Below, in pieces: positions 74 to 61,547 of a stretch of 64,000 bases of DNA. Within the stretch, counting starts at the first letter, position 1; each line of letters starts with the position of its first letter. This DNA comes from Hormiphora californensis (lineage: Eukaryota > Animalia > Ctenophora): contig CM035360.1 in assembly GCA_020137815.1 (NCBI GenBank), positions 3,658,001 to 3,722,000 of the forward strand, given 5' to 3'. The notes under the pieces are model-generated. The model searched no databases and was not told the DNA's origin. It saw nothing but the letters and a program-made list of their open reading frames with translations. The translations under genes and the position numbers were made by a program.

Positions 74-13065
<12,992 letters not shown>

Positions 13066-18049: not shown

Positions 18050-20381
18050 GAAAAAACAATAGACATTGGAAATTTAAAAAGAAAAGAATTGGTGAAAGAT
18101 GGGGGGATATTAAAAAATTTTTAAAATATGATAAGAATTTGGGATTGGGATGAAAATTTAGAACAACCCCCTTTGGGGCCCTTTGTTTGGGGGGGAAGGG
18201 GGCCTCCTTTTTCCCCCATGTTTTATGAGGATTTTCCGAAAAATTAGGATTTTTGCATGAGATTAAAAGATAGGGAATAAAGGAAAAAAAAAAAAAAAAT
18301 TTTCCCTTTTTGAAAAAAAAAAAAGGGAATTTGAAAAGGGGGGGGGAAATTTTCCTTTTTTTTTAAATTTTTGGGGGGGGGGGTTTTAAATTTGGGAAAA
18401 ACCAGGGGGGGAATTTTAAAAAATATTTTATTTAAATTTTGGAAAAAGGGGAAAAAAAATAAAAAAGAAATTTAAAATTTTTAAAAGCAAGGCCTTTTAT
18501 AAATGATATGTGGGGGGGAGTTTAAAATGACTTTAAAAAAATTTGGGGAAACCCTAAATTTGGGCGAAAAAAATTTTTGGGGGGGGCCCTTTTTTGGGGC
18601 TAATGCAAAAAAAATTTTAAAACCTTTTGAATTTTTTTAAAAAAAAAACTAAATAAAAAACAAGTTTTTCGTTTAAAAAAAGGGGGGGGGGGGGTTAAAT
18701 TAAAAAAAACATAAATAAAGAATTATTTATATTAATCTTGAGAAAAAAAAACCAACGGGGGCCTAAAATCAAAATCAATTAAAAAATGCCCCGTAAAATT
18801 GAAAAAAAAAGAAATTTTTATAAAAAGGGGGGGCCCCCCCCCCCCTTTATTAAATATAAATAAGGGGGGTTTGTTTTTTTCCCCTTTTTAAATTTTGGAA
18901 AGGGGGGCCCTTTAAAAGTTTTAAAATTTAAAATTCTTGACCTAAATTGGAAAATACAAAAACAGATAATGAATAAAGAGAATAAAACTTTTTTAAAATT
19001 AAATTTGGGAAAAAAAAGGGGTTTGAAAAAAAAAAATTTGGGAAAATTTTTGGAAACCCGGGGTTTGAATATTGAGAATTTCCATTTAAAAAAAAGGGAA
19101 GGGGGGATTTTTTTTTCTAACCCTCTTATTTTAAATGGGGTTTTGGGAAAGGGAAGAGAAAGAAAATCCAAAAGGGGGAAAATTAGCGACTTTTGGGAAA
19201 CAGGTTTTTTTGGGAAAAAATTCCCAAAATTTAAAATTTTTTAAACAAAAGGCCCTTTCCTTAAATTTTTAAAACCCTTCAAGTTTAAATTTTAAAACTC
19301 CCACTTTAAAAATGATTTTTCCCCCAATGAAACAAACAATTTCTTTTTTTTTTATAAAAATTTTCTTTCAAAAAATACCTAATATTTTTTTTTTTTTTTA
19401 AAGGGGGGGGGGGTTTTTGGGGGGGGGGGGGGGGGGGGTTTTCCCGGGGGGGTTTTTGTTTTTTTTTTTGGGGGGGGGGGGGTTCCCCCTTTTACCCTTT
19501 AAAAAATGGTTTTAAAAAATTTTAAAAAAATTTATTTTGAATATTTTTTCCCAAAAAATTTAACTTTCCTTTTTTTTCCCTTGGGTTTTTAAAACTACTT
19601 TTAAAAAAAAAAAAAGTTTCCCCCCTTTAAAAAATTTCCGAACCCCTTTTAAATGATATTCCCCCCAAAAGGTTAAAATTTTTTTAAAAAATTGTTAAAA
19701 AATTTTTTAAAATTTTAAATTTTTTCCCACTAACAATTTTAAAAATTTTTTTTTTTTTTTGTAAATCATTTTAAAAACCTTGGAAATAAAACATCAGGGA
19801 TGACCCCCCCCAAAAAAACCCATTTTATCCCCTAATCATTTAACCCCCCCAAAAAAAATTTTTTTATACAAAAGGGGATTAAAATTAGGGGTTGGGAGAC
19901 TTGGGTTGGATAAAAATCCCCCAAACGGGAAATTGGTTTTTGTTTTACCCCCCGGGAATATGTGGGTTGGGGGGGGGGGGGGGGGGGAAACGCTGCTCAT
20001 TGGACAAAATCAGCCCCTAAAATCCGGGGTGAAAAACCATCTCGTGAGCGGGGTATTTAAAATTTCCCCTTTTCCTGCACGGTTTCAATCGCAAATTTTT
20101 TTAATTTTTAACTTGATTTTAAACCAAAATACCCATAAAATAAATTTTGTTTTGAAACAAAATGAGACATTTATAAAGTTTTGATTTGGGAACCCTTTTA
20201 AAAAACCATTTAAAAGTTTGAAACTTAAAACTTTTTTCCCCCCAAGTTTAAATTTTTTTTAATCCTTCGGTAATTTTCCGTTTTTCCCCTAACACTTTTT
20301 TCTCCCTTACTCTTTGTCCATTTTTTTTTTTGGTTACCCCTTTTCTTTCTCCCCTTTTTCCCCTTTTCCTTTCCCCCCCCC

Positions 20382-20471
<90 letters not shown>

Positions 20472-21050
20472 GGGGGGGGGGGGGGGGCCCCCCCCCCCCC
20501 CAAAAAAAAAAAACCCCTTTTTCCTCTTTTCCTCTCTCCCCTCCCCCTCTCCCCTTTCTCTCCCCCCCTCTTCTTTTTTTTTTTTCCCTTCCTTTTTCTG
20601 CTTTTTTTTTGTCCCCCCCCCAATTTTAATGGTTTTAAAATTTAAACTGGTTATGGGTTGAAAGGGGGCCCCCCCGCCTTGCAAAAGTCTTTACATAGGC
20701 TAGGGGGCTGCAGGGGGAAAAATTAGAAATTTTTTGTTGATTTGATAAAACTTGATCTTTTTAAATTAACTAGAAGGTTTTTTTGTAAAATTTAGGTACA
20801 GGGGTTTCACCGTGACCCTTGTTATAATCAATGTCTTCAACCTTGACCTTGCCATGCTAGAAATCTCACATCTTTTTCAAACTGATAGTTGAGCTGGGCA
20901 GTGTTCATCTGTGTTTCTACAATTTCTCGCCAGAAAAGGACAGGTTAATGGGTTTCAATGGGTTTTTTTGGGGTTGGGGAACAAAAACACGGGGAATTTA
21001 AAAAAGGGAAGGCGGGGGTGAAAATTTTACTTACTTCCGTACCCCGATTT
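18050..21050. other. Low-quality homopolymer-inflated sequence (probable long-read consensus artefact)
   Basis: Nearly all bases lie in A/T/G/C runs, including >40-nt A runs and long G/C runs at 20370-20520; the ORFs here are K/F/G/P low complexity. Confidence 0.8.
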
Positions 21051-24563: not shown

Positions 24564-24887
24564 ATCATACCCATGCGACTCTTATCAAGCAGGAGATAAT
24601 AATATTATAATATTATAATAAATCTATTAAATTCTGCTTGATCCCGAGATCTGCAGCTTCTATAGATCTATTTACCTCGGGTTAAGATGAAATCTGATTG
24701 GGTGAGACACACCCAAAACCAACGAATTGCAGACTGCATCATCTTGATCCTTGTTACTCAACAACTCAGATCATACCCATGCGACTTTTATCAAGCAGGA
24801 TATATAAGAGATCTATTAAATTCTGCTTGATCCCGAGATCTGCAGCTACTAGATCTATTTATCTCGGGTTAAGATAAAATGGGTGAG
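24564..24887. repeat. Partial tandem duplication (~206-bp period) with internal inverted repeats
   Basis: ATCATACCCATGCGACT...TCAAGCAGGA...TTCTGCTTGATCCCGAGATCTGCAGCT...CTCGGGTTAAGAT occurs at ~24564 and ~24770. Confidence 0.75.
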
Positions 24888-26382
24888 CCACTCCTTCCTC
24901 GCGTGAGGGGATATCTTAACAAGCTAAACCAACGGATATCTGCATTGCGTTACGTAATACACCCATCACGCGATAATGGAGGTATAAAAGTGTCAATGCG
25001 CAGAGTGGATTCCACGAATTGTGGTGCAGACTGCAGAGCACAAAACATTGTGCTCCTGCAAAAGTATCAGACTTTTTGCTAAATTTCATTTTGCATTCAA
25101 TTTACTAGTTCAGACTCCACCCTGCATAAGGTGCATCCATAAGGTGCATCCATAAGGTGCATCTCAAGTGGTTTTCATAACCAACCTGGCTAAGTGATTT
25201 GTTCTAACCCGCCCTAACCGGGGTGAGAGAGGGTCGAGTAAGGCATCCAAGTGATACCTCTATCATAGAAGTTGTTACTTGGTACCATGTACACAATTGA
25301 GGAGGCATGACGGATACTAGGTTACCGTCTTCTTCTTCTTAGGGTGTAATGTGCAAACCCCTCTGGCCTTTATGTGGTTCCTGGCTGACAGGCTGAGTGC
25401 GCATCATTCCTACCAGTATAATCTTCCATGGGTGCCATTATACACGAGGTGCTCACCTGAGGTCGCACTGTGTGTAACATGGGTACTATACCAGCCGCCA
25501 CACAACCTATACAATTGCAAACCTCACTCCAACACTCATCTTATGAGATCATCACCTCAATGGTATAAAATTGAATTTTCATAAGAAAATCACTGCTTGG
25601 GGCATTTCCCCGGTATTTCACGATTTCGATACTTTGTTCTTTACAAAAGATGCAACAAGCTCCTCCCACTCAAATGTGTTCTGCACAAAATATGCAGCCC
25701 CATACACTGGTAACGAGCACTTTCTCTCCTTCTCTCTCTCTCACTCCTTCTCTCTCTCCTTTTCTCACGTGCGGGGGAAGGCTGGGGGCCCCTGCAGTGT
25801 GTGTATAAACTGTGTGGGGTGTTGACAAATCTGTGATCCAAGAACTCCTGATGAACATCCGCCTATATATCCCCCCTCCTCGCCCCCCGCCGCAGAAGTG
25901 CCACCCCCTGCACTGCTGCTGCAGTACCATAGCTCATCCTTGTATAGTGTGTCGCTCTCTTTCTCTCTCTTTAATCTTTATATCGCTCTCTCTCTCTCTC
26001 TCTCTTCACTCCTACTGTATGTTTGCTTTTGCGTCCCCTTCATAGTAGTTACCAGGACATTTGAAAACTGTGGTTTCTGCAGTTCTTAGTTTATTTTATC
26101 TTTGTATAATTATAGGCCGGTTCATTATTGGAATGATGGTTCTCGAAACTCCACTGTTAGGTCCATTAATATGTTTTTGTCTTCTGATCGTCCTGATTCA
26201 ATGATCGTTGGCGTACAATATGGGTGAATCATATCATATGTAGCATAGAAAAAGCCTTTGTGTTTTTTGTCGCCACTCTTCATTTACTGTGACATATAAA
26301 CCATATTCCCTAACATTCCTTTTTCTAACAATGTCAATTAGATTCAGTCAATCTAACCCACTCGTATCTCCATAGCAATAAA

Positions 26383-29755: not shown

Positions 29756-30171
29756 TAGTAAGATAGTGAAACATGGCCTGTTTAATATGCATTACAGATA
29801 AAGAAGATGAATTGTAGTCACCACTGTTTCTAGTTCAAATACTTAAAGTACATACACGAAGTTCTGTTGTCATTCTCACTTGCATCAACTTGGACAGGCT
29901 TGTTTCCAAGTATCCGTTCAAAACATGTTGTCTCGTGATCGCGATTCGCGTGTTTTCAAAGTTACTGTTGAACCGTAGGTATGTAGCTAAACCAAAATCA
30001 GAGATGAATATTATACGCTTGCTTCTGCACATGAAATAGCCTGAGTCTAGGGTCCTGGATGTGATTTGAAACCCAGGGTGGCCTACAAGCTGCAAGACCT
30101 GGGTAGGACTGCCATATCCGAACTTTCATGGGCGAACCCAGGTCGGCGGAGGAAATTAACCGTTTGTAGCC

Positions 30172-30500
30172 TGCATCTCACCACACTGGCTGTACTTCTA
30201 TAAGTAAAGCCCATCACACTCCACTGCACCACACCATACCGACTGTACTTCTAGAAGTAAAGCCCAACACACTCCACTGCACCACACCATACTGGCTGTA
30301 CTTCTATAAGTAAAGCCCAACACACTCCACTACACTACACCATACTGGCTTCACTTCTTTAAGTAAAGCCCAACACACTCCACTGCACTACACCATACTG
30401 GCTGCACTTCTATAAGTAAAGCCCAACACGCTCCACTGCACTACACCATACTGGCTGCACTTCTATAAGTGAAGCCCAACATGCTCCACTGCGCAACACC
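30172..30500. repeat. 53-bp minisatellite, about 6 copies
   Basis: Unit ~CTGTACTTCTATAAGTAAAGCCCAACACACTCCACTGCACTACACCATACTGG repeated head to tail with scattered substitutions. Confidence 0.9.
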
Positions 30501-31226
30501 TCACTGGAACCCTTCCACCCCCATACCCCCAATTTTGGTGTCCATTTATAATTTATATCCCCCTTTTTTCTTTGCCCCTTTTTTGTTGTCTTTTTTTTTT
30601 TTTTTTTTTGGATCTTTTCTGCTTTACTTTTTTTTTTTTTTTTTTTTTCTTTTCTTTTTTTTTGATTTTTTGATTTTTTAACCCAGGCTATTGCTAGAGT
30701 AAGGAAGCGAGACATGTAGTCACCACACTGTGTTTCTAGCCCGAAGAATACCTTAAAGTTTTACGATCTAGAAGTATGATTTCATATTCTTTCACCGACG
30801 ACAGACTGGTGGTGATTCCGAAAGGATGATCCGGTACTATGCTGTCTTGCCTGTTCGGCGAGACTTGGCTGTGTGACTGTTTACAGTCCCAGATGAGCGG
30901 CCCAAACCAAACCAAACCAAACCACAGTACTGTGGACTGTGGTGTTTCGCAAGGTTCTCTGCTAGGACCACTGACCAGCGACCAGTCTTGTCCCTGTTGT
31001 ATGTGGATTGTGGAAGAACTCCAAGATGGGGTACAGAGCTGGCAACGGACTATGTGGTAGCACTTGCCAAGATATTTGGGATGACTGTCTGCAGTGCCGA
31101 CCCTGCCAGGTCAATGCTCTGACAGCACCAAGAGTCGCGACCTGTCTGGCGGCGCCAGACAGGCCGCGACCCGGTCCGATCGTCGAACTCGACCCGGTCG
31201 GCGGTCTGACTCACTTTCAGTGTCAT

Positions 31227-34206
31227 GCAGGGATATCTTATCTCAGAAGTAAAACAGACGTTGTGCAATGTGCTCTCTTAGAAATAGATGTTAACCAGTA
31301 AGAGAAGTAGCGAATAGGCCACAAAAAATAAAAGAAAAATAAACAAGTAAAATAAAAGAAAAGGAAAGAGATAAACAAACAAAATAAAAGAAGAGAGTTC
31401 AAAATAAAATAAAAAATAAAAATTTAATTTAATTGGACAACTTCGCGCCGCGCGCAAATCTTACAACTTCACCGCCGCGCGGCGCGTGATGTTCTGCAGA
31501 ATTCTGTACACGTACGGCGCTGCGACTCAAAAAAGCTTTTAAAAGTTGAAATCGAGTCGTTTTCAAAAAATCTTTTAGACCAAAAACTGATAAGTTTGTC
31601 AAAAAGATGACGATTAAACAATTACTCATACATTTGTGACCTTGTGTTAAAGGGATACTGACATATTCAAAAAATTTTGACTTTTTCAACGATCCTGGGT
31701 GTGGTAACTGATTGGGAGATAAAAATAGGATGAGTCGAAGTGCGAACTCTCTACTCCCTCTCGTTCTCAAGATATAGGGCCCCACCTTTTAGCACTTCGT
31801 AATTGGTTATGGTAAAGGGGGAGAGTTGTATTGCAAATTACATGTAAACACGAGTCTGTTTATCTGTCAATATCTCAACTTTCACATGCACGATTTTGAC
31901 CGGATTTTTTTCTGGGAGTGAGAAATGTTTTAAATTTTTAGTATTTTCTTATGATTTATCAGAATGACCAAAAATATCAGTAAATAAACAAGTAAACATT
32001 GCAGTTTGAGGTGAACTGGAGTACATTGTCAATTAGACCCAATTATGGTCAATTAGGGCACTTTGCCGACCTCTGAGGACTTGGAAAAGTTACTGATGTG
32101 ATTCAGCGTATCAAAATTAGTGTGTTAAGTGCCCTCACATGCGATATTTCAGCATTTCCAGTTGAAAATGCAACTATCGCCAATTAGACTGAATTATGCT
32201 CGATTAGGACACTTTCTTCACCTCTGACGGCTTGGAAAAGCCGCTTACGTGATTCATCGTATCAAAATTAGTGGGGATAGTGCTCTCACATGAATTGATA
32301 ATGTTTTCATGCGATACGTTACAGTTACGATCAATTAGACCCGATTATGCTCAATTATGGCACTTTCTCCACCCCTGAGCGCTTGCCAAAGTTGCTCACG
32401 TGATTCAACGTATCAAAATTAGTCGGGTATAGTGGTTTTGCCTTTTATACCAATTAGTTGGCTAAATTTTTCAGTTTATACTCTCCTAGGATACAATATT
32501 CATTTCAGGGCTGAATAATTAATAACTATTGACTATTTTGTTGACTATGGGCTAAATATTAACAATTTGTATGTAAAATTGAGGAAGCACAGCCAAGTCT
32601 GATTGACATTAGTTACTGAATACCATGATAATATTGTTCTAAGAAGGCATACATTACATAAAAATCACGGTCTTGCTTAGGTATAGTTTTATCTATTCAT
32701 GACAACACTAGAGACAAATGGAAACAAAAAACGGAAACTAGAAGTGGTCTTAAAGTTTTTAGAAAAAACCCGGTCAAAATCGCATGTGTATTAGCTGAGA
32801 TAATGACATATAAACAGGCTCGTGTTTACCTGTAATCTGTAATACTGGTCTCCTCCTCTTACCATAACCAATTAGGAGGTGCTAATATTCGGGTCCCTAT
32901 ATCTTGAGAAGTAGAGGGAATAGAGAGCTCGGACTTCGACACAATGTATTTATTCTCTCAGATGATGTGATTGAGCAATGTTTTACTAAAATTTGAGATG
33001 GTCGATTTGAATATGTCAGTATCCCTTTAAGCTGTTTTTTTTGTTGCTTGTTAATTTTTAGACCCATCAAACATGTCTAACCTCGCCATGAAGCAAGAAA
33101 AGTTGTTATTTTGACCGTTTTGCCTACTTAAATTTTCTATAAATCAACGATCTGTTATTGGATTGGTATGAAATCTTGGATTTTAGTCGAAAATTGTCCC
33201 ATAAACAACTTAAGCATGGTCCCGACTGGCCATTTCAATCAGAAGTTTGTCAAAAATGCCAAAATCCAAAAAACAAGAAAATCAAGTTACGGTTCTCCTA
33301 GTTGGCAGATTTCAACAATTTGCCCAAATCTAACCATAAATCGGATATACACGAAAACTTGGTTCTTGGTAGAAAAATGACCATTTTAACGATTGGCACT
33401 AGTTTCAAATTCCTATCTCAACGTTTTCAATGGTTTAGGGGCCAAAAACCTCCAAAAAATGGTAAAAAATCAACTTTTGACCATTTTACAGTCATTTTAG
33501 AGATTCGACTTCAACGGCAATCGATTCTACGTGCAAAAATAGGTGGGGGTGACATATTTCGTGTGCTAAGTCATTATGGATTTTTCGGGACCACGTTTAA
33601 TATAGCCAATTTTGACCCAAATCAAATAAAAGTTAAAAAAAAGATTTTAGGGAATGGAATGTTTTTTCCCGCACCGTAGCGCCATTCTGTAGACCCTCAG
33701 CTACCACGTACAAGTGGTGGTTTCCCGTCGCATGCTAGGTCGTGTTAAAATTTCACCAGGCACGCCGTGGCAGGCAGGGATATCTTATCTCAGAAGTAAA
33801 ACAGACGTTGTGCAATGTGCTCTCTTAGAAATAGATGTTAACCAGTAAGAGAAGTAGCGAATAGGCCACAAAAAATAAAAGAAAAATAAACAAACAAAAT
33901 AAAAGAAGAGAGTTCAAAATAAAATAAAAAATAAAAATTGAATTTAATTGGACAACTTCGCGCCGCGCGCAAATCTTACAATTTCACCGCCGCGCGGCGC
34001 GTGATGTTCTGCTGCGACTCAAAAAAGCTTTTAAAAGTTGAAATCGAGTCGTTTTCAAAAAATCTTTTAGACCAAAAACTGATAAGTTTGTCAAAAAGAT
34101 GACGATTAAACAATTACTCATACATTTGTGACCTTGTGTTAAGCTGTTTTTTTTGTTGCTTGTTAATTTTTAGACCCATCAAACATGTCTAACCTCGCCA
34201 TGAAGC
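31227..34206. repeat. Partial tandem duplication of a ~1.17-kb repeat unit (copy 1 31227-33773, interrupted by the TTAA element; partial copy 2 33774-34206)
   Basis: GCAGGGATATCTTATCTCAGAAG...TGTGTTAA/GCTGTTTTTTTTGTTG...CCTCGCCATGAAGC present at 31227-33094 (with insertion) and 33774-34206 (without insertion, two small deletions). Confidence 0.85.
31651..33026. mobile_element. Non-autonomous Kolobok-like DNA transposon (TTAA TSD, AGG...CCT termini)
   Basis: TTAA|AGGGATACTGACATATTCAAA ... TTTGAATATGTCAGTATCCCT|TTAA. Degenerate inverted similarity extends ~260 bp inward; three internal ~150-bp-spaced CAATTAGAC...CGTATCAAAATTAGT repeats. The empty site GTGTTAAGCTG is seen at 34139-34142 in the duplicated copy. 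Confidence 0.85.
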
Positions 34207-34271: not shown

Positions 34272-50580
<16,309 letters not shown>

Positions 50581-56341: not shown

Positions 56342-57378
56342 CCAGCTCCCTCTCTCTAATTGTCAGGGCTAGTGAGCTGCCTTACTTGTCTGGCCAAATG
56401 TGGTCATCTTACTCAATATTTCTTCTGTAGCAATACACATTTAGGCTCGGTTATTTTATTTGCTTTTATTGGTTTCTGGATCTTGTTTTGGCTCCCAAGT
56501 TCCAATCGCTTTATCTAACAGCACATTCTCTTTTGGTTCCTTTCTAATTTTAATTTTCAAGATCTTTTTCACAACCTTTTTTATAATCACAGTGCTGCTC
56601 TAGCAATAGCATGAGAACAGAAGCGTTTGACTAATTGTACCTACCTATACTCTATGCCCATGTAGGGACGAGGAGTTGGGGTGATATCAAACTCAACTGG
56701 AGAGTAGAGCGGTACCGTCCTCGTACCTGTTGAGAGGGGGGTTTATCAATATGTGTCAATACTCTTGAAGCTAGATAAAGAAATAAGTGAGAGATAGAGG
56801 AATGGAGAGAGAGAGGAAGAGAGAGAGATATTCAATATGCATATTAGAAAGTAGAACCATATAAGAATTGGGAGGCATTATCTAGTAGAGAGAAGAGCTG
56901 AATGTGTCAAAAGATAGCAAGATAGTCAAGATTTGAGATTTCAAATACGGTAGTCAATTTAATTTCAAGAGAGATAGAGTAGTCAAGAGGAAGATAATAA
57001 GGGGTTGTCGGGTGTGCTGTCAGAAGTGGGGGCTTGTCGTACTAGTCGGATTCTTCAGTTTCTACCCTCCGCTTTGTCTTGCAATCTCTCTCATATATCG
57101 TTCTCACAATGAGCTCAAACAGTGTTCAATTTTCTCTCCCCACCCCCAATCTCATTATGTGCTTGCTCCAAGGTTGTGTGTGTGTGTAAAACAGTGAAGA
57201 CGACCTCTCTCAGGAGCTTAGGGGTTGATTTGAGTGGACTTGTATTGTGTTCTGTATGCGTTTGATTGGTTGGTAAACAGTGTTTAGGTGTTTAGGACTT
57301 AGGTGTTACTACAGTTTGCAGTCTTGTGATACATAAGTGGCCATATTTGCTATTGTAAAAACGAACTAAGTATTTAGT

Positions 57379-60300
57379 GGAAGTAATTTTGATATCTCCT
57401 TCTGGTGCTGATACACACTCACACGCCCTCCGTACAACGGTTATATAGGGGAATCTCACACACACACGGGCAGATCTCGGTCAAGGAGAGATTAATTGAT
57501 TATTCAGAATAAAGAGATCTGAGCAAGAATTAAATAGGGAAGAAAATCGAAAAATACTGGGTTCGACCGGGAATTGAACCAGGGACCTCCAGAGAGACGC
57601 GCTCGATGCTCTACCACTGAGCTACCGAACCCCTGTACAGATCGCATTTCTTCACACTATATTCAAGCACATGCCCTTAGCTAGACACCATGTGATAGAG
57701 GAAGTAATTTTGATATCTCCTTCTGGTGCTGATACACACTCACACGCCCTCCGTACAACGGTTATATAGGGGAATCTCACACACACACGGGCAGATCTCG
57801 GTCAAGGAGAGATTAATTGATTATTCAGAATAAAGAGATCTGAGCAAGAATTAAATAGGGAAGAAAATCGAAAAATACTGGGTTCGACCGGGAATTGAAC
57901 CAGGGACCTCCAGAGAGACGCGCTCGATGCTCTACCACTGAGCTACCGAACCCCTGTACAGATCGCATTTCTTCACACTATATTCAAGCACATGCCCTTA
58001 GCTAGACACCATGTGATAGAGGAAGTAATTTTGATATCTCCTTCTGGTGCTGATACACACTCACACGCCCTCCGTACAACGGTTATATAGGGGAATCTCA
58101 CACACACACGGGCAGATCTCGGTCAAGGAGAGATTAATTGATTATTCAGAATAAAGAGATCTGAGCAAGAATTAAATAGGGAAGAAAATCGAAAAATACT
58201 GGGTTCGACCGGGAATTGAACCAGGGACCTCCAGAGAGACGCGCTCGATGCTCTACCACTGAGCTACCGAACCCCTGTACAGATCGCATTTCTTCACACT
58301 ATATTCAAGCACATGCCCTTAGCTAGACACCATGTGATAGAGGAAGTAATTTTGATATCTCCTTCTGGTGCTGATACACACTCACACGCCCTCCGTACAA
58401 CGGTTATATAGGGGAATCTCACACACACACGGGCAGATCTCGGTCAAGGAGAGATTAATTGATTATTCAGAATAAAGAGATCTGAGCAAGAATTAAATAG
58501 GGAAGAAAATCGAAAAATACTGGGTTCGACCGGGAATTGAACCAGGGACCTCCAGAGAGACGCGCTCGATGCTCTACCACTGAGCTACCGAACCCCTGTA
58601 CAGATCGCATTTCTTCACACTATATTCAAGCACATGCCCTTAGCTAGACACCATGTGATAGAGGAAGTAATTTTGATATCTCCTTCTGGTGCTGATACAC
58701 ACTCACACGCCCTCCGTACAACGGTTATATAGGGGAATCTCACACACACACGGGCAGATCTCGGTCAAGGAGAGATTAATTGATTATTCAGAATAAAGAG
58801 ATCTGAGCAAGAATTAAATAGGGAAGAAAATCGAAAAATACTGGGTTCGACCGGGAATTGAACCAGGGACCTCCAGAGAGACGCGCTCGATGCTCTACCA
58901 CTGAGCTACCGAACCCCTGTACAGATCGCATTTCTTCACACTATATTCAAGCACATGCCCTTAGCTAGACACCATGTGATAGAGGAAGTAATTTTGATAT
59001 CTCCTTCTGGTGCTGATACACACTCACACGCCCTCCGTACAACGGTTATATAGGGGAATCTCACACACACACGGGCAGATCTCGGTCAAGGAGAGATTAA
59101 TTGATTATTCAGAATAAAGAGATCTGAGCAAGAATTAAATAGGGAAGAAAATCGAAAAATACTGGGTTCGACCGGGAATTGAACCAGGGACCTCCAGAGA
59201 GACGCGCTCGATGCTCTACCACTGAGCTACCGAACCCCTGTACAGATCGCATTTCTTCACACTATATTCAAGCACATGCCCTTAGCTAGACACCATGTGA
59301 TAGAGGAAGTAATTTTGATATCTCCTTCTGGTGCTGATACACACTCACACGCCCTCCGTACAACGGTTATATAGGGGAATCTCACACACACACGGGCAGA
59401 TCTCGGTCAAGGAGAGATTAATTGATTATTCAGAATAAAGAGATCTGAGCAAGAATTAAATAGGGAAGAAAATCGAAAAATACTGGGTTCGACCGGGAAT
59501 TGAACCAGGGACCTCCAGAGAGACGCGCTCGATGCTCTACCACTGAGCTACCGAACCCCTGTACAGATCGCATTTCTTCACACTATATTCAAGCACATGC
59601 CCTTAGCTAGACACCATGTGATAGAGGAAGTAATTTTGATATCTCCTTCTGGTGCTGATACACACTCACACGCCCTCCGTACAACGGTTATATAGGGGAA
59701 TCTCACACACACACGGGCAGATCTCGGTCAAGGAGAGATTAATTGATTATTCAGAATAAAGAGATCTGAGCAAGAATTAAATAGGGAAGAAAATCGAAAA
59801 TACTGGGTTTGGCCGGGAATTGAACCAGGGACCTCCAGAGAGACGCGCTCGATGCTCTACCACTGAGCTACCGAACCCCTGTACAGATCGCATTTCTTCA
59901 CACTATATTCAAGCACATGCCCTTAGCTAGACACCATGTGATAGAGGAAGTAATTTTGATATCTCCTTCTGGTGCTGATACACACTCACACGCCCTCCGT
60001 ACAACGGTTATATAGGGGAATCTCACACACACACGGGCAGATCTCGGTCAAGGAGAGATTAATTGATTATTCAGAATAAAGAGATCTGAGCAAGAATTAA
60101 ATAGGGAAGAAAATCGAAAAATACTGGGTTCGACCGGGAATTGAACCAGGGACCTCCAGAGAGACGCGCTCGATGCTCTACCACTGAGCTACCGAACCCC
60201 TGTACAGATCGCATTTCTTCACACTATATTCAAGCACATGCCCTTAGCTAGACACCATGTGATAGAGGAAGTAATTTTGATATCTCCTTCTGGTGCTGAT

Positions 60301-61340
60301 ACACACTCACACGCCCTCCGTACAACGGTTATATAGGGGAATCTCACACACACACGGGCAGATCTCGGTCAAGGAGAGATTAATTGATTATTCAGAATAA
60401 AGAGATCTGAGCAAGAATTAAATAGGGAAGAAAATCGAAAAATACTGGGTTCGACCGGGAATTGAACCAGGGACCTCCAGAGAGACGCGCTCGATGCTCT
60501 ACCACTGAGCTACCGAACCCCTGTACAGATCGCATTTCTTCACACTATATTCAAGCACATGCCCTTAGCTAGACACCATGTGATAGAGGAAGTAATTTTG
60601 ATATCTCCTTCTGGTGCTGATACACACTCACACGCCCTCCGTACAACGGTTATATAGGGGAATCTCACACACACACGGGCAGATCTCGGTCAAGGAGAGA
60701 TTAATTGATTATTCAGAATAAAGAGATCTGAGCAAGAATTAAATAGGGAAGAAAATCGAAAAATACTGGGTTCGACCGGGAATTGAACCAGGGACCTCCA
60801 GAGAGACGCGCTCGATGCTCTACCACTGAGCTACCGAACCCCTGTACAGATCGCATTTCTTCACACTATATTCAAGCACATGCCCTTAGCTAGACACCAT
60901 GTGATAGAGGAAGTAATTTTGATATCTCCTTCTGGTGCTGATACACACTCACACGCCCTCCGTACAACGGTTATATAGGGGAATCTCACACACACACGGG
61001 CAGATCTCGGTCAAGGAGAGATTAATTGATTATTCAGAATAAAGAGATCTGAGCAAGAATTAAATAGGGAAGAAAATCGAAAAATACTGGGTTCGACCGG
61101 GAATTGAACCAGGGACCTCCAGAGAGACGCGCTCGATGCTCTACCACTGAGCTACCGAACCCCTGTACAGATCGCATTTCTTCACACTATATTCAAGCAC
61201 ATGCCCTTAGCTAGACACCATGTGATAGAGGAAGTAATTTTGATATCTCCTTCTGGTGCTGATACACACTCACACGCCCTCCGTACAACAATTTTTCGAT
61301 TTTCTTCCCTATTTAATTCTTGCTCAGATCTCTTTATTCT
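57379..61340 (-). repeat. Tandem array of a 321-bp tRNA-like unit (12 full copies + 60-bp partial + 50-bp inverted terminal segment), flanked by a 14-bp direct repeat
   Basis: Unit starts at 57379, 57700, 58021, 58342, 58663, 58984, 59305, 59626, 59946, 60267, 60588, 60909; partial unit 61230-61289. 61291-61340 is the reverse complement of unit segment 57506-57555. CTAAGTATTTAGTG at 57366-57379 and 61339-61352. Confidence 0.95.
57559..57632 (-). ncRNA. tRNA-like (tRNA-Cys-resembling) Pol III gene with non-canonical anticodon loop; first of 12 copies
   Basis: Minus strand GGGTTCGG TA GCTC AGTGGTA GAGC A TCGAG CGCGTCT CTCtGG AGGTC CCTGG TTCAATT CCCGG TCGAACCC followed by AGTATTTTT. A-box, B-box, paired acceptor stem and T5 terminator are intact; the loop lacks U33 and purine-37. 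Other copies start at 57880, 58201, 58522, 58843, 59164, 59485, 59805, 60126, 60447, 60768, 61089. Confidence 0.8.
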
Positions 61341-61547
61341 AAGTATTTAGTGCTTTAAAAAGCATGTCCAAGGTGGACTCTTCCTTTCAAAAATAGCTCA
61401 CTACAACTGGAGTACTAAAATGCTTTTGGACTGTTTTAAGATATGTATTGAAGACTCGTTCGAAGGTAAAAACTTTAAGATCAAAGATCGGTGCTACAGG
61501 TTTTGAAGACTAGGTAGACTCTACTGCGCTAGGTTTATAGTAGAACT

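Follow-up and report, generated by a model that had tools for sequence, protein, structure and literature searches.

A polymorphic tandem array of a tRNA-derived repeat in Hormiphora californensis, probably inserted by a Penelope-like enzyme

A 64,000-nucleotide stretch of the ctenophore Hormiphora californensis (assembly GCA_020137815.1, contig CM035360.1, positions 3,658,001 to 3,722,000, forward strand; 'the window') was analyzed around an array of 321-bp units at 57366-61352. On balance, the array is best read as a young, polymorphic 12-unit concatemer of a non-coding repeat derived from transfer RNA (tRNA), probably placed by target-primed reverse transcription (TPRT) with the enzyme of a Penelope-like element (PLE), that is, as a ribozyme-free PLE parasite. 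The insertion has an empty allele in another individual, and the unit belongs to a dispersed family with two preferred ends and recurring inversions.

Array structure, empty allele and dispersed family

A preliminary description, made from the letters of the window, gave about 12.2 head-to-tail units of 321 bp inside an exact 14-bp repeat, inserted as one mobile unit; recounting yielded 12 full units and a 59-bp partial unit (Table 1). The 14-mer occurs at 57366 and 61339 only (64 kb window, other strand included; chance of a match at a given site ~7.5e-9), the target site is 70% AT, and no copies of the target-site duplication (TSD) were found between units within the array. Unit 8 (starts at 59627) departs from the other units by one deletion and two substitutions, close together. 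The 50-bp terminal inversion was recomputed exactly as first given: 61291-61340 is the reverse complement of 57506-57555 (50/50 identical), with one extra A at the junction, 2-bp microhomology with the right TSD, and 67 bp (unit positions 60-126) unrepresented between the partial unit and the inverted piece. The array holds no open reading frame (ORF) and no poly(A), in agreement with the same description, no simple-repeat tail stands at its E1 end (defined below), and unit ends are not TG..CA.

Insertion status was checked on contigs of public sequencing runs (7 runs mapped; samples including S1 and S2). Two mappings were made, the first with the left flank (57055 on) and the second with the right flank (to 61540), with run X5 in both; the loose ends reported here are the best-supported rows, beside 360 and 299 further rows in the two mappings. 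A 508-nt contig of run X5 (sample S2, depth 241.1) matches 57055-57379 over letters 1-323, and an X5 contig of the same length, depth and strand matches 61339-61540 over letters 310-508, the left and right matches overlapping by 14 letters. This contig is the empty allele, carrying one 14-mer, in another individual. As the empty allele has a single 14-mer, the repeat is a true TSD and the insertion is young and polymorphic; the proposed search for an empty site was thus answered, and insertion as one mobile unit is supported by it. In two runs of S1, the right-flank contig departs from the window at 61339 with 54 unlike letters, and this is probably the empty allele as well. Missing left-flank cover in runs X1, X6 and X13 proves nothing and was set aside.

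An assembly artefact is unlikely to be the source of the array, since the duplication spans just the 14 bp of the empty site and each end of the array is one typical of the family, a combination not to be expected from an assembler; on the other side stand the low-complexity stretch near 18-20.7 kb and filled junctions that were unseen among the contig pieces listed. That artefact, or a tandem terminal-repeat retrotransposon in miniature (TRIM) of the Helenus type, with tRNA-like sequence in its long terminal repeats (LTRs), is together an extremely improbable account. Helenus elements are likewise non-autonomous, carry a tRNA-like RNA polymerase III (Pol III) promoter and sometimes form tandem arrays; they differ in their LTR-internal-LTR structure with primer-binding site and polypurine tract and in TSDs of 4-5 bp (cited part of PMC10886601), against a 14-bp TSD, one repeated unit, ragged ends and termini other than TG..CA here. 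The array is not assigned to Helenus because of that TSD length. A Helitron origin was rejected on the 14-bp TSD; Helitrons are not known to make a TSD. As a separate caution on assembly quality, the window at ~18200-20700 is homopolymer-rich and resembles low-quality sequence.

The 321-bp unit is a dispersed high-copy family. Of the 24 runs listed, 20 contained it, with marine metagenomes and two organism labels represented; 539 to 3527 contigs per DNA run mapped to it (first mapping), and in X5 its summed contig depth was ~320-3350 times that of the flank, which is not a copy number. The earlier idea of a mobile family, not confined to this locus, is borne out by these public-run contigs. 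In tRNA sense, the 3' ends of family copies fall at two preferred places, 'E1' and 'E2', ~120 bp apart, and the opposite ends are ragged and scattered; extension is at one end only, and the array is bounded by E1 on its left and by E2 on its right. Loose ends at E1 were seen in 8 (X5) and 13 (X6) contigs in the first mapping and in 6+4 (X3), 5 (X5) and 7 (X9) in the second. Those at E2 stand before 57500 (9, X6), 57502 (1, X13), 57507 (5, X1) and 57514 (8, X1) in the first mapping, on a 6-bp palindrome (57500-57512) within an 8-bp stem (57471-57478 / 57514-57521). Loose ends behind 61332 and 61339 (80 contigs, second mapping) did not enter the E2 counts, as ordinary units likewise extend past the reference at those points, and a row before 57493 (first mapping) was dropped as ordinary unit sequence. 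Flanks beyond E1 and E2 give a mixed AT-rich consensus. Fixed ends on one side with ragged ends on the other are expected of reverse transcription from a 3' start, from which we infer that the tRNA-sense strand is the likely template.

The proposed check for terminal inversions on other copies returned at least four further head-to-head junctions in the second mapping: direct 28 to inverted 164 (two samples), direct 26 to inverted 155, direct 203/204 to inverted 170/169 (two runs, one sample) and direct 219 to inverted ~187 (unit positions); two more opposite-strand joints came from the first mapping. As the reference could reveal inversions only within unit positions 127-176, the anchoring of inversions at E2 partly reflects ascertainment.

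These ends bear on a DNA-level event, in which a satellite gave a product by rolling circle or as extrachromosomal circular DNA and a staggered break captured it, or in which an initially short insertion was later expanded by unequal crossover. Capture predicts neither a strand-polar pattern, fixed at one end and ragged at the other, nor repeated inversions with their anchor at E2, and the units carry no TSD copies between them. The near-identity of the units would suit such an event and later expansion of a short insertion is compatible with the data; tRNA-containing tandem repeats of 250-360 nt are described in amphibians (cited part of PMC10702118), and unequal recombination has been proposed for arrays of short interspersed elements (SINEs; cited part of PMC11481361). 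Taken together, we regard a DNA-level origin as very improbable.

Several further variants of the family were observed. Deletion variants and truncations cluster at unit 34-43 (57413-57422), with jumps 34->120, 36->128, 37->74, 43->107, 43->138 and 41->129; the stretch retained between E1 and the jump towards E2 is 34-43 bp, as long as a PLE tail. Summed contig depth over 57520-57610 exceeds that elsewhere in the unit several-fold. Several copies terminate in the anticodon loop (57596-57605), so that the most frequent copy type may be a short form that extends from mid-tRNA to E2. Elsewhere in the window, 24565-24894 is a partial tandem (~205 bp and a shorter copy), hairpin-rich and non-coding, with no Rfam match above threshold. 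A 45-nt stretch of it resembles the 321-bp unit from E2 (BLAST E 0.005; score 48.5 vs best random 47, n=297), and by this marginal likeness the tandem is possibly another client of the same enzyme.

The tRNA-like domain and processing of the RNA

Each unit carries one tRNA-like domain. In the Rfam search tRNA was the sole above-threshold match in the unit (39.7 bits, gathering 29), and matches to Plastid-ycf2, mascRNA and MIR5200 were below gathering and rejected; ARAGORN called 12 tRNA-Thr(CGT) on the minus strand. A tRNA fold in each monomer, as first described, therefore stands for these calls and for the acceptor, D and T arms, and fails for the anticodon arm, which is irregular and variable across copies, unlike the canonical arm of a functional tRNA gene array. 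The tRNA starts ~70 nt inside the unit and is followed directly by T runs; two intervals within it fit the consensus patterns of the A and B boxes of Pol III.

Leader and trailer are predicted to form a duplex of -24.5 kcal/mol, and 10/2000 shuffles were as stable. Six of the seven variant sites in the stem arms are unpaired (binomial 0.006, calculated on copies that are not independent), and folding of the whole unit was not unusual against shuffles (z -0.37 and -0.54). A compensatory acceptor-stem change (C5-G68 to U5-A68) in one RNA-library contig suggests that the tRNA fold is under some constraint. In summed depth, tRNA position 68 is A in ~71-82% and position 5 is mostly still C. The base of unit 8 corresponding to 57564 is the family majority (71-82% of depth), and its two-substitution haplotype recurs in the letters of another junction; as a family variant, unit 8 is easier to reconcile with a mixed multimer template, with conversion or with polishing than with a single circle.

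The CTGANGA hammerhead core was found on neither strand, and a one-mismatch search gave 3 candidates, in all of which stem II spans at most 2 bp ahead of a GAAA-like motif, so both searches uphold the earlier claim that no hammerhead core exists. The ribozyme scan that had been called for was run against Rfam, with no ribozyme in the unit down to E 10. Six RNA runs contain part of the unit (0.16-0.59 of words); one was mapped, giving 9 contigs, two of which span a head-to-tail junction, which fits a multimer, a circle or DNA carry-over. These contigs are uninformative on transcription, because a high-copy repeat may be DNA carry-over.

The preliminary description had assigned the tRNA a cutting role: host RNase P and RNase Z would cut a multimer or a 321-nt circle in place of a hammerhead, and a resident reverse transcriptase (RT) would copy the RNA. 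Its observation that the inverted piece stops 2-3 nt past the tRNA 3' end was confirmed, and this piece begins 2-3 nt from the RNase Z site (unit 178-179), depending on register; loose ends at unit 174-175 (4 contigs in X3, 3 in X9) lie nearby. RT stalling at the foot of the acceptor stem would equally give inverted ends at 174-176. Other inverted pieces start at unit 155, 164, 169-170 and ~187 and not at the RNase Z site. Start points that are circularly permuted, which the description had proposed to score, or defined by the tRNA were not seen in the mapped contigs, where the fixed ends E1 and E2 lie far from the tRNA ends. The compensatory change, the two junction-spanning contigs and the identity of 11/12 units would agree with processing; position 5, mostly C where position 68 is A, and the family variant in unit 8 speak against it, as does a circle, which offers no 5' end to stop at. 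Pairing of leader and trailer in a long stem is expected to hinder cleavage by RNase P and RNase Z. Given this stem, the scatter of inverted ends from 155 to ~187, the remote fixed ends and the broken anticodon arm, the processing inference did not hold up, and we consider it distinctly unlikely. The tRNA part is most likely a promoter and a stable fold, not a cutting signal.

Mode of insertion

The preliminary description recognized a Penelope-like or TPRT signature, and this was sustained by the tandem copies, the inverted 5' piece, the two start sites, the recurring inversions and the lack of poly(A). In the cited part of PMC8557442, PLE insertions are described as partially tandem, frequently next to an inverted copy with a truncated 5' end, and as bearing a 30-40 bp tail at a single end; the structure is given likewise in the cited part of PMC8969392. 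Naiads lack hammerheads, and non-autonomous Chlamys elements form multicopy head-to-tail insertions (cited part of PMC8557442). The anole PLE protein, once purified, nicks AT-rich DNA on both strands and extends each of them; its synthesis begins at two positions within the RNA that correspond to the genomic ends, and unprocessed RNA is its main substrate (cited part of PMC11167929). Tandem copies with an adjacent inverted 5'-truncated copy were found at the array, and head-to-head inversions at the four further junctions.

In the proposed sequence of events, the template would be a multi-unit tRNA-sense RNA read through an existing array, transcribed either from the intact A and B boxes with a leaky T4-T5 stop or by RNA polymerase II. 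Since a transcript ending at the T5 run lacks both E1 and E2, templates must be read-through. The enzyme would nick the two strands of an AT-rich site, with 14 nt between the nicks. At the first nick, complementary DNA (cDNA) would begin internally at E1 and copy ~3.9 kb, and at the other nick cDNA would begin at E2 and copy 50 nt. Repair would then join both cDNAs head to head with one extra base.

Several points weigh against insertion by a PLE enzyme as set out above, or against the data on which it stands. No RT or GIY-YIG domain was found in the window ORFs (Pfam, 0/140, as 0/135 + 0/5; the first set comprised 136 candidate ORFs less one that lies in the low-quality stretch), and no autonomous partner was found in the 64 kb. 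The spacing of E1 and E2 compares with PLE tails of 30-40 nt, the target is neither a TA nor a CA microsatellite, and the 14-bp TSD with 2-bp microhomology fits L1-type twin priming too. Most Pol III transcripts would be expected to end at the T5 run, short of E2 and E1, and transcription in the tRNA sense is itself presumed. The empty-allele contig was paired across both mappings by length, depth, strand and coordinates and not by id. Filled junctions were absent among the pieces listed for all 7 runs mapped, beside which stood 5081 and 2303 further pieces, so that the filled haplotype and the count of 12 units rest on the assembly, and S1 contigs differ from the right flank of the window, with several flank differences common to all four second-mapping runs.

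An alternative account is a tRNA-derived, SINE-like repeat mobilized by a long interspersed element (LINE), with a multimeric transcript inserted by TPRT and twin priming. Its A and B boxes are intact, the TSD, microhomology, gap and orientation of the array all fit twin priming (cited part of PMC2912911), and both palindromes and TSD-(SINE)n-TSD arrays with 4-15 units have been described from a bivalve (cited part of PMC11481361). This account is unlikely, however, as poly(A) and simple-repeat tails are lacking, the tRNA lies inside the unit and not at its head, with a terminator after it, and the second priming site is the family-wide hotspot E2 and not a chance microhomology. In addition, 5'-inverted SINE insertions by L1 are rare (1 Alu among 5554 and 4/477 SVA; cited part of PMC2912911) and recurrent in this family.

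Beyond insertion by a PLE enzyme, a widespread, undescribed class of PLE parasite may be envisaged, in which the tRNA module replaces the hammerhead and drives Pol III, host tRNA enzymes cut or circularize the RNA, and concatemers are inserted whole. This larger proposal is doubtful; if true, such a class would account for the tRNA-containing tandem repeats that stand as orphans in amphibians.

Table 1. Coordinates of the array and of the features of its unit in the window. Unit features are given for one copy.
Feature	Position	Strand	Remarks
Left TSD	57366..57379	+	14 bp; final G common to unit; empty allele has a single copy
12 full 321-bp units, head-to-tail	57380..61230	-	11/12 identical
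E1, preferred family end	57379..57380	-	Loose ends run into dissimilar flanks; reverse transcription inferred to start here (3')
E2, second preferred family end	57496..57514	-	Loose ends; palindrome; inverted piece meets TSD here
Predicted long irregular leader-trailer stem	57525..57676	-	Fold prediction; tRNA-like domain at tip
T5 and T4 runs, candidate Pol III terminator	57543..57554	-	Unit 8 has T4 in place of T5
tRNA-like domain, one per unit	57559..57631	-	Acceptor, D and T arms formed; anticodon arm irregular
Putative Pol III B box	57570..57580	-	Fits consensus pattern
Putative Pol III A box	57614..57624	-	Fits consensus pattern
Unit 8	59627..59946	-	320 bp; three clustered differences, one the family-majority allele
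59-bp partial unit	61231..61289	-	Truncated 5' end of direct part
One extra A at inversion junction	61290..61290
Inverted 50-bp piece, unit 176 to 127	61291..61340	+	Head-to-head with array; ends at E2
Right TSD	61339..61352	+	2-bp microhomology with inverted piece

Outside the array, the window holds a 1832-aa ORF (7567-13065, plus strand) with many immunoglobulin (Ig) domains, a basic motif resembling a cleavage site and a hydrophobic segment at the C terminus, with upstream Ig exons from ~500; residues 1300-1830 had no homologue at E 1e-5 among 7253 candidates. A Smr domain exon lies at 50124-50432, plus strand (Pfam E 2.6e-8), with no longer homologue at E 1e-5 among 50 candidates, and a Sushi domain exon at 37810-38076, minus strand (Pfam E 3.8e-5). 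In the Ig gene region, 1753-3063 is an element with 122-nt terminal inverted repeats (97%), made of 13-19 bp and 55-bp subrepeats, and resembles a foldback element or a miniature inverted-repeat transposable element. A 53-bp tandem of 6 copies occupies 30126-30549, and at 31716-32959 an inverted pair of ~190 bp (82%) encloses a 151-bp tandem of 3 copies (32025-32443).

Comparison with known systems

As a rule, SINE-like elements go with LINEs, and tandem elements that rely on PLEs go with hammerheads. If true, a family that derives from tRNA, lacks a ribozyme and has ends of the PLE type would be the Penelope-like elements' counterpart of a SINE. The array would illustrate how a mobile element can give rise to 4 kb of tandem repeats in one step, which bears on the long-standing question of how satellites originate, and a small, active, polymorphic substrate with two mapped start sites and a known empty site would serve the study of start-site choice and inverted ends in PLEs. 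No description of a tRNA-derived, PLE-dependent tandem element was found in the literature searched, which covered titles and abstract beginnings, with most subscription journals, Repbase reports and the supplement of PMC8557442 outside it.

Bivalve SINE arrays and amphibian tRNA-containing tandem repeats are partial precedents. tRNA-derived SINEs and their arrays share with the family A and B boxes, high copy number, TSDs of 6-18 bp and the TSD-(unit)n-TSD order (cited parts of PMC11481361 and PMC10702118), whereas the 321-bp unit has an internal tRNA with a terminator, frequent inversions and two fixed ends. A tRNA at the 5' head and a poly(A) or microsatellite tail, as in a standard SINE, were not found in the array, which is not classed as one because the tRNA is internal and a tail is lacking. 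The amphibian repeats PolIII/TAN, OAX and Rana/polIII are also long tandem units with tRNA-like sequence and no matching SINE; they are likened here by description only, and no insertion mechanism is given for them in the cited parts of PMC10702118 and PMC12054243.

In its workings, the array is comparable with animal non-LTR retrozymes and with non-autonomous PLEs. Animal non-LTR retrozymes are non-coding tandem units of similar size with TSDs >4 bp, occur as monomers and multimers, and have a proposed PLE dependence (cited parts of PMC7229834 and bioRxiv 10.64898/2026.07.22.740005). The array, too, is a non-coding tandem of a unit within 150-450 bp and has a long TSD. Retrozymes have a type I hammerhead per unit, whereas the 321-bp unit, known here from DNA, has a tRNA-like domain and Pol III boxes instead, and the array is not called a retrozyme because it lacks the hammerhead. 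With PLEs (Naiad/Chlamys, and non-autonomous Chlamys elements such as MRC1) the family shares tandem copies, an inverted 5'-truncated piece, two preferred 3' start sites, extension at one end, an AT-rich target and the lack of poly(A) (cited parts of PMC8557442 and PMC11167929). It differs from them in having no ORF and in an E1-E2 distance of ~120 nt in place of 30-40, and is likened to them by structure and not by homology. The tRNA module is a feature of the 321-bp unit, not mentioned for Naiad/Chlamys in the cited parts of those two papers.

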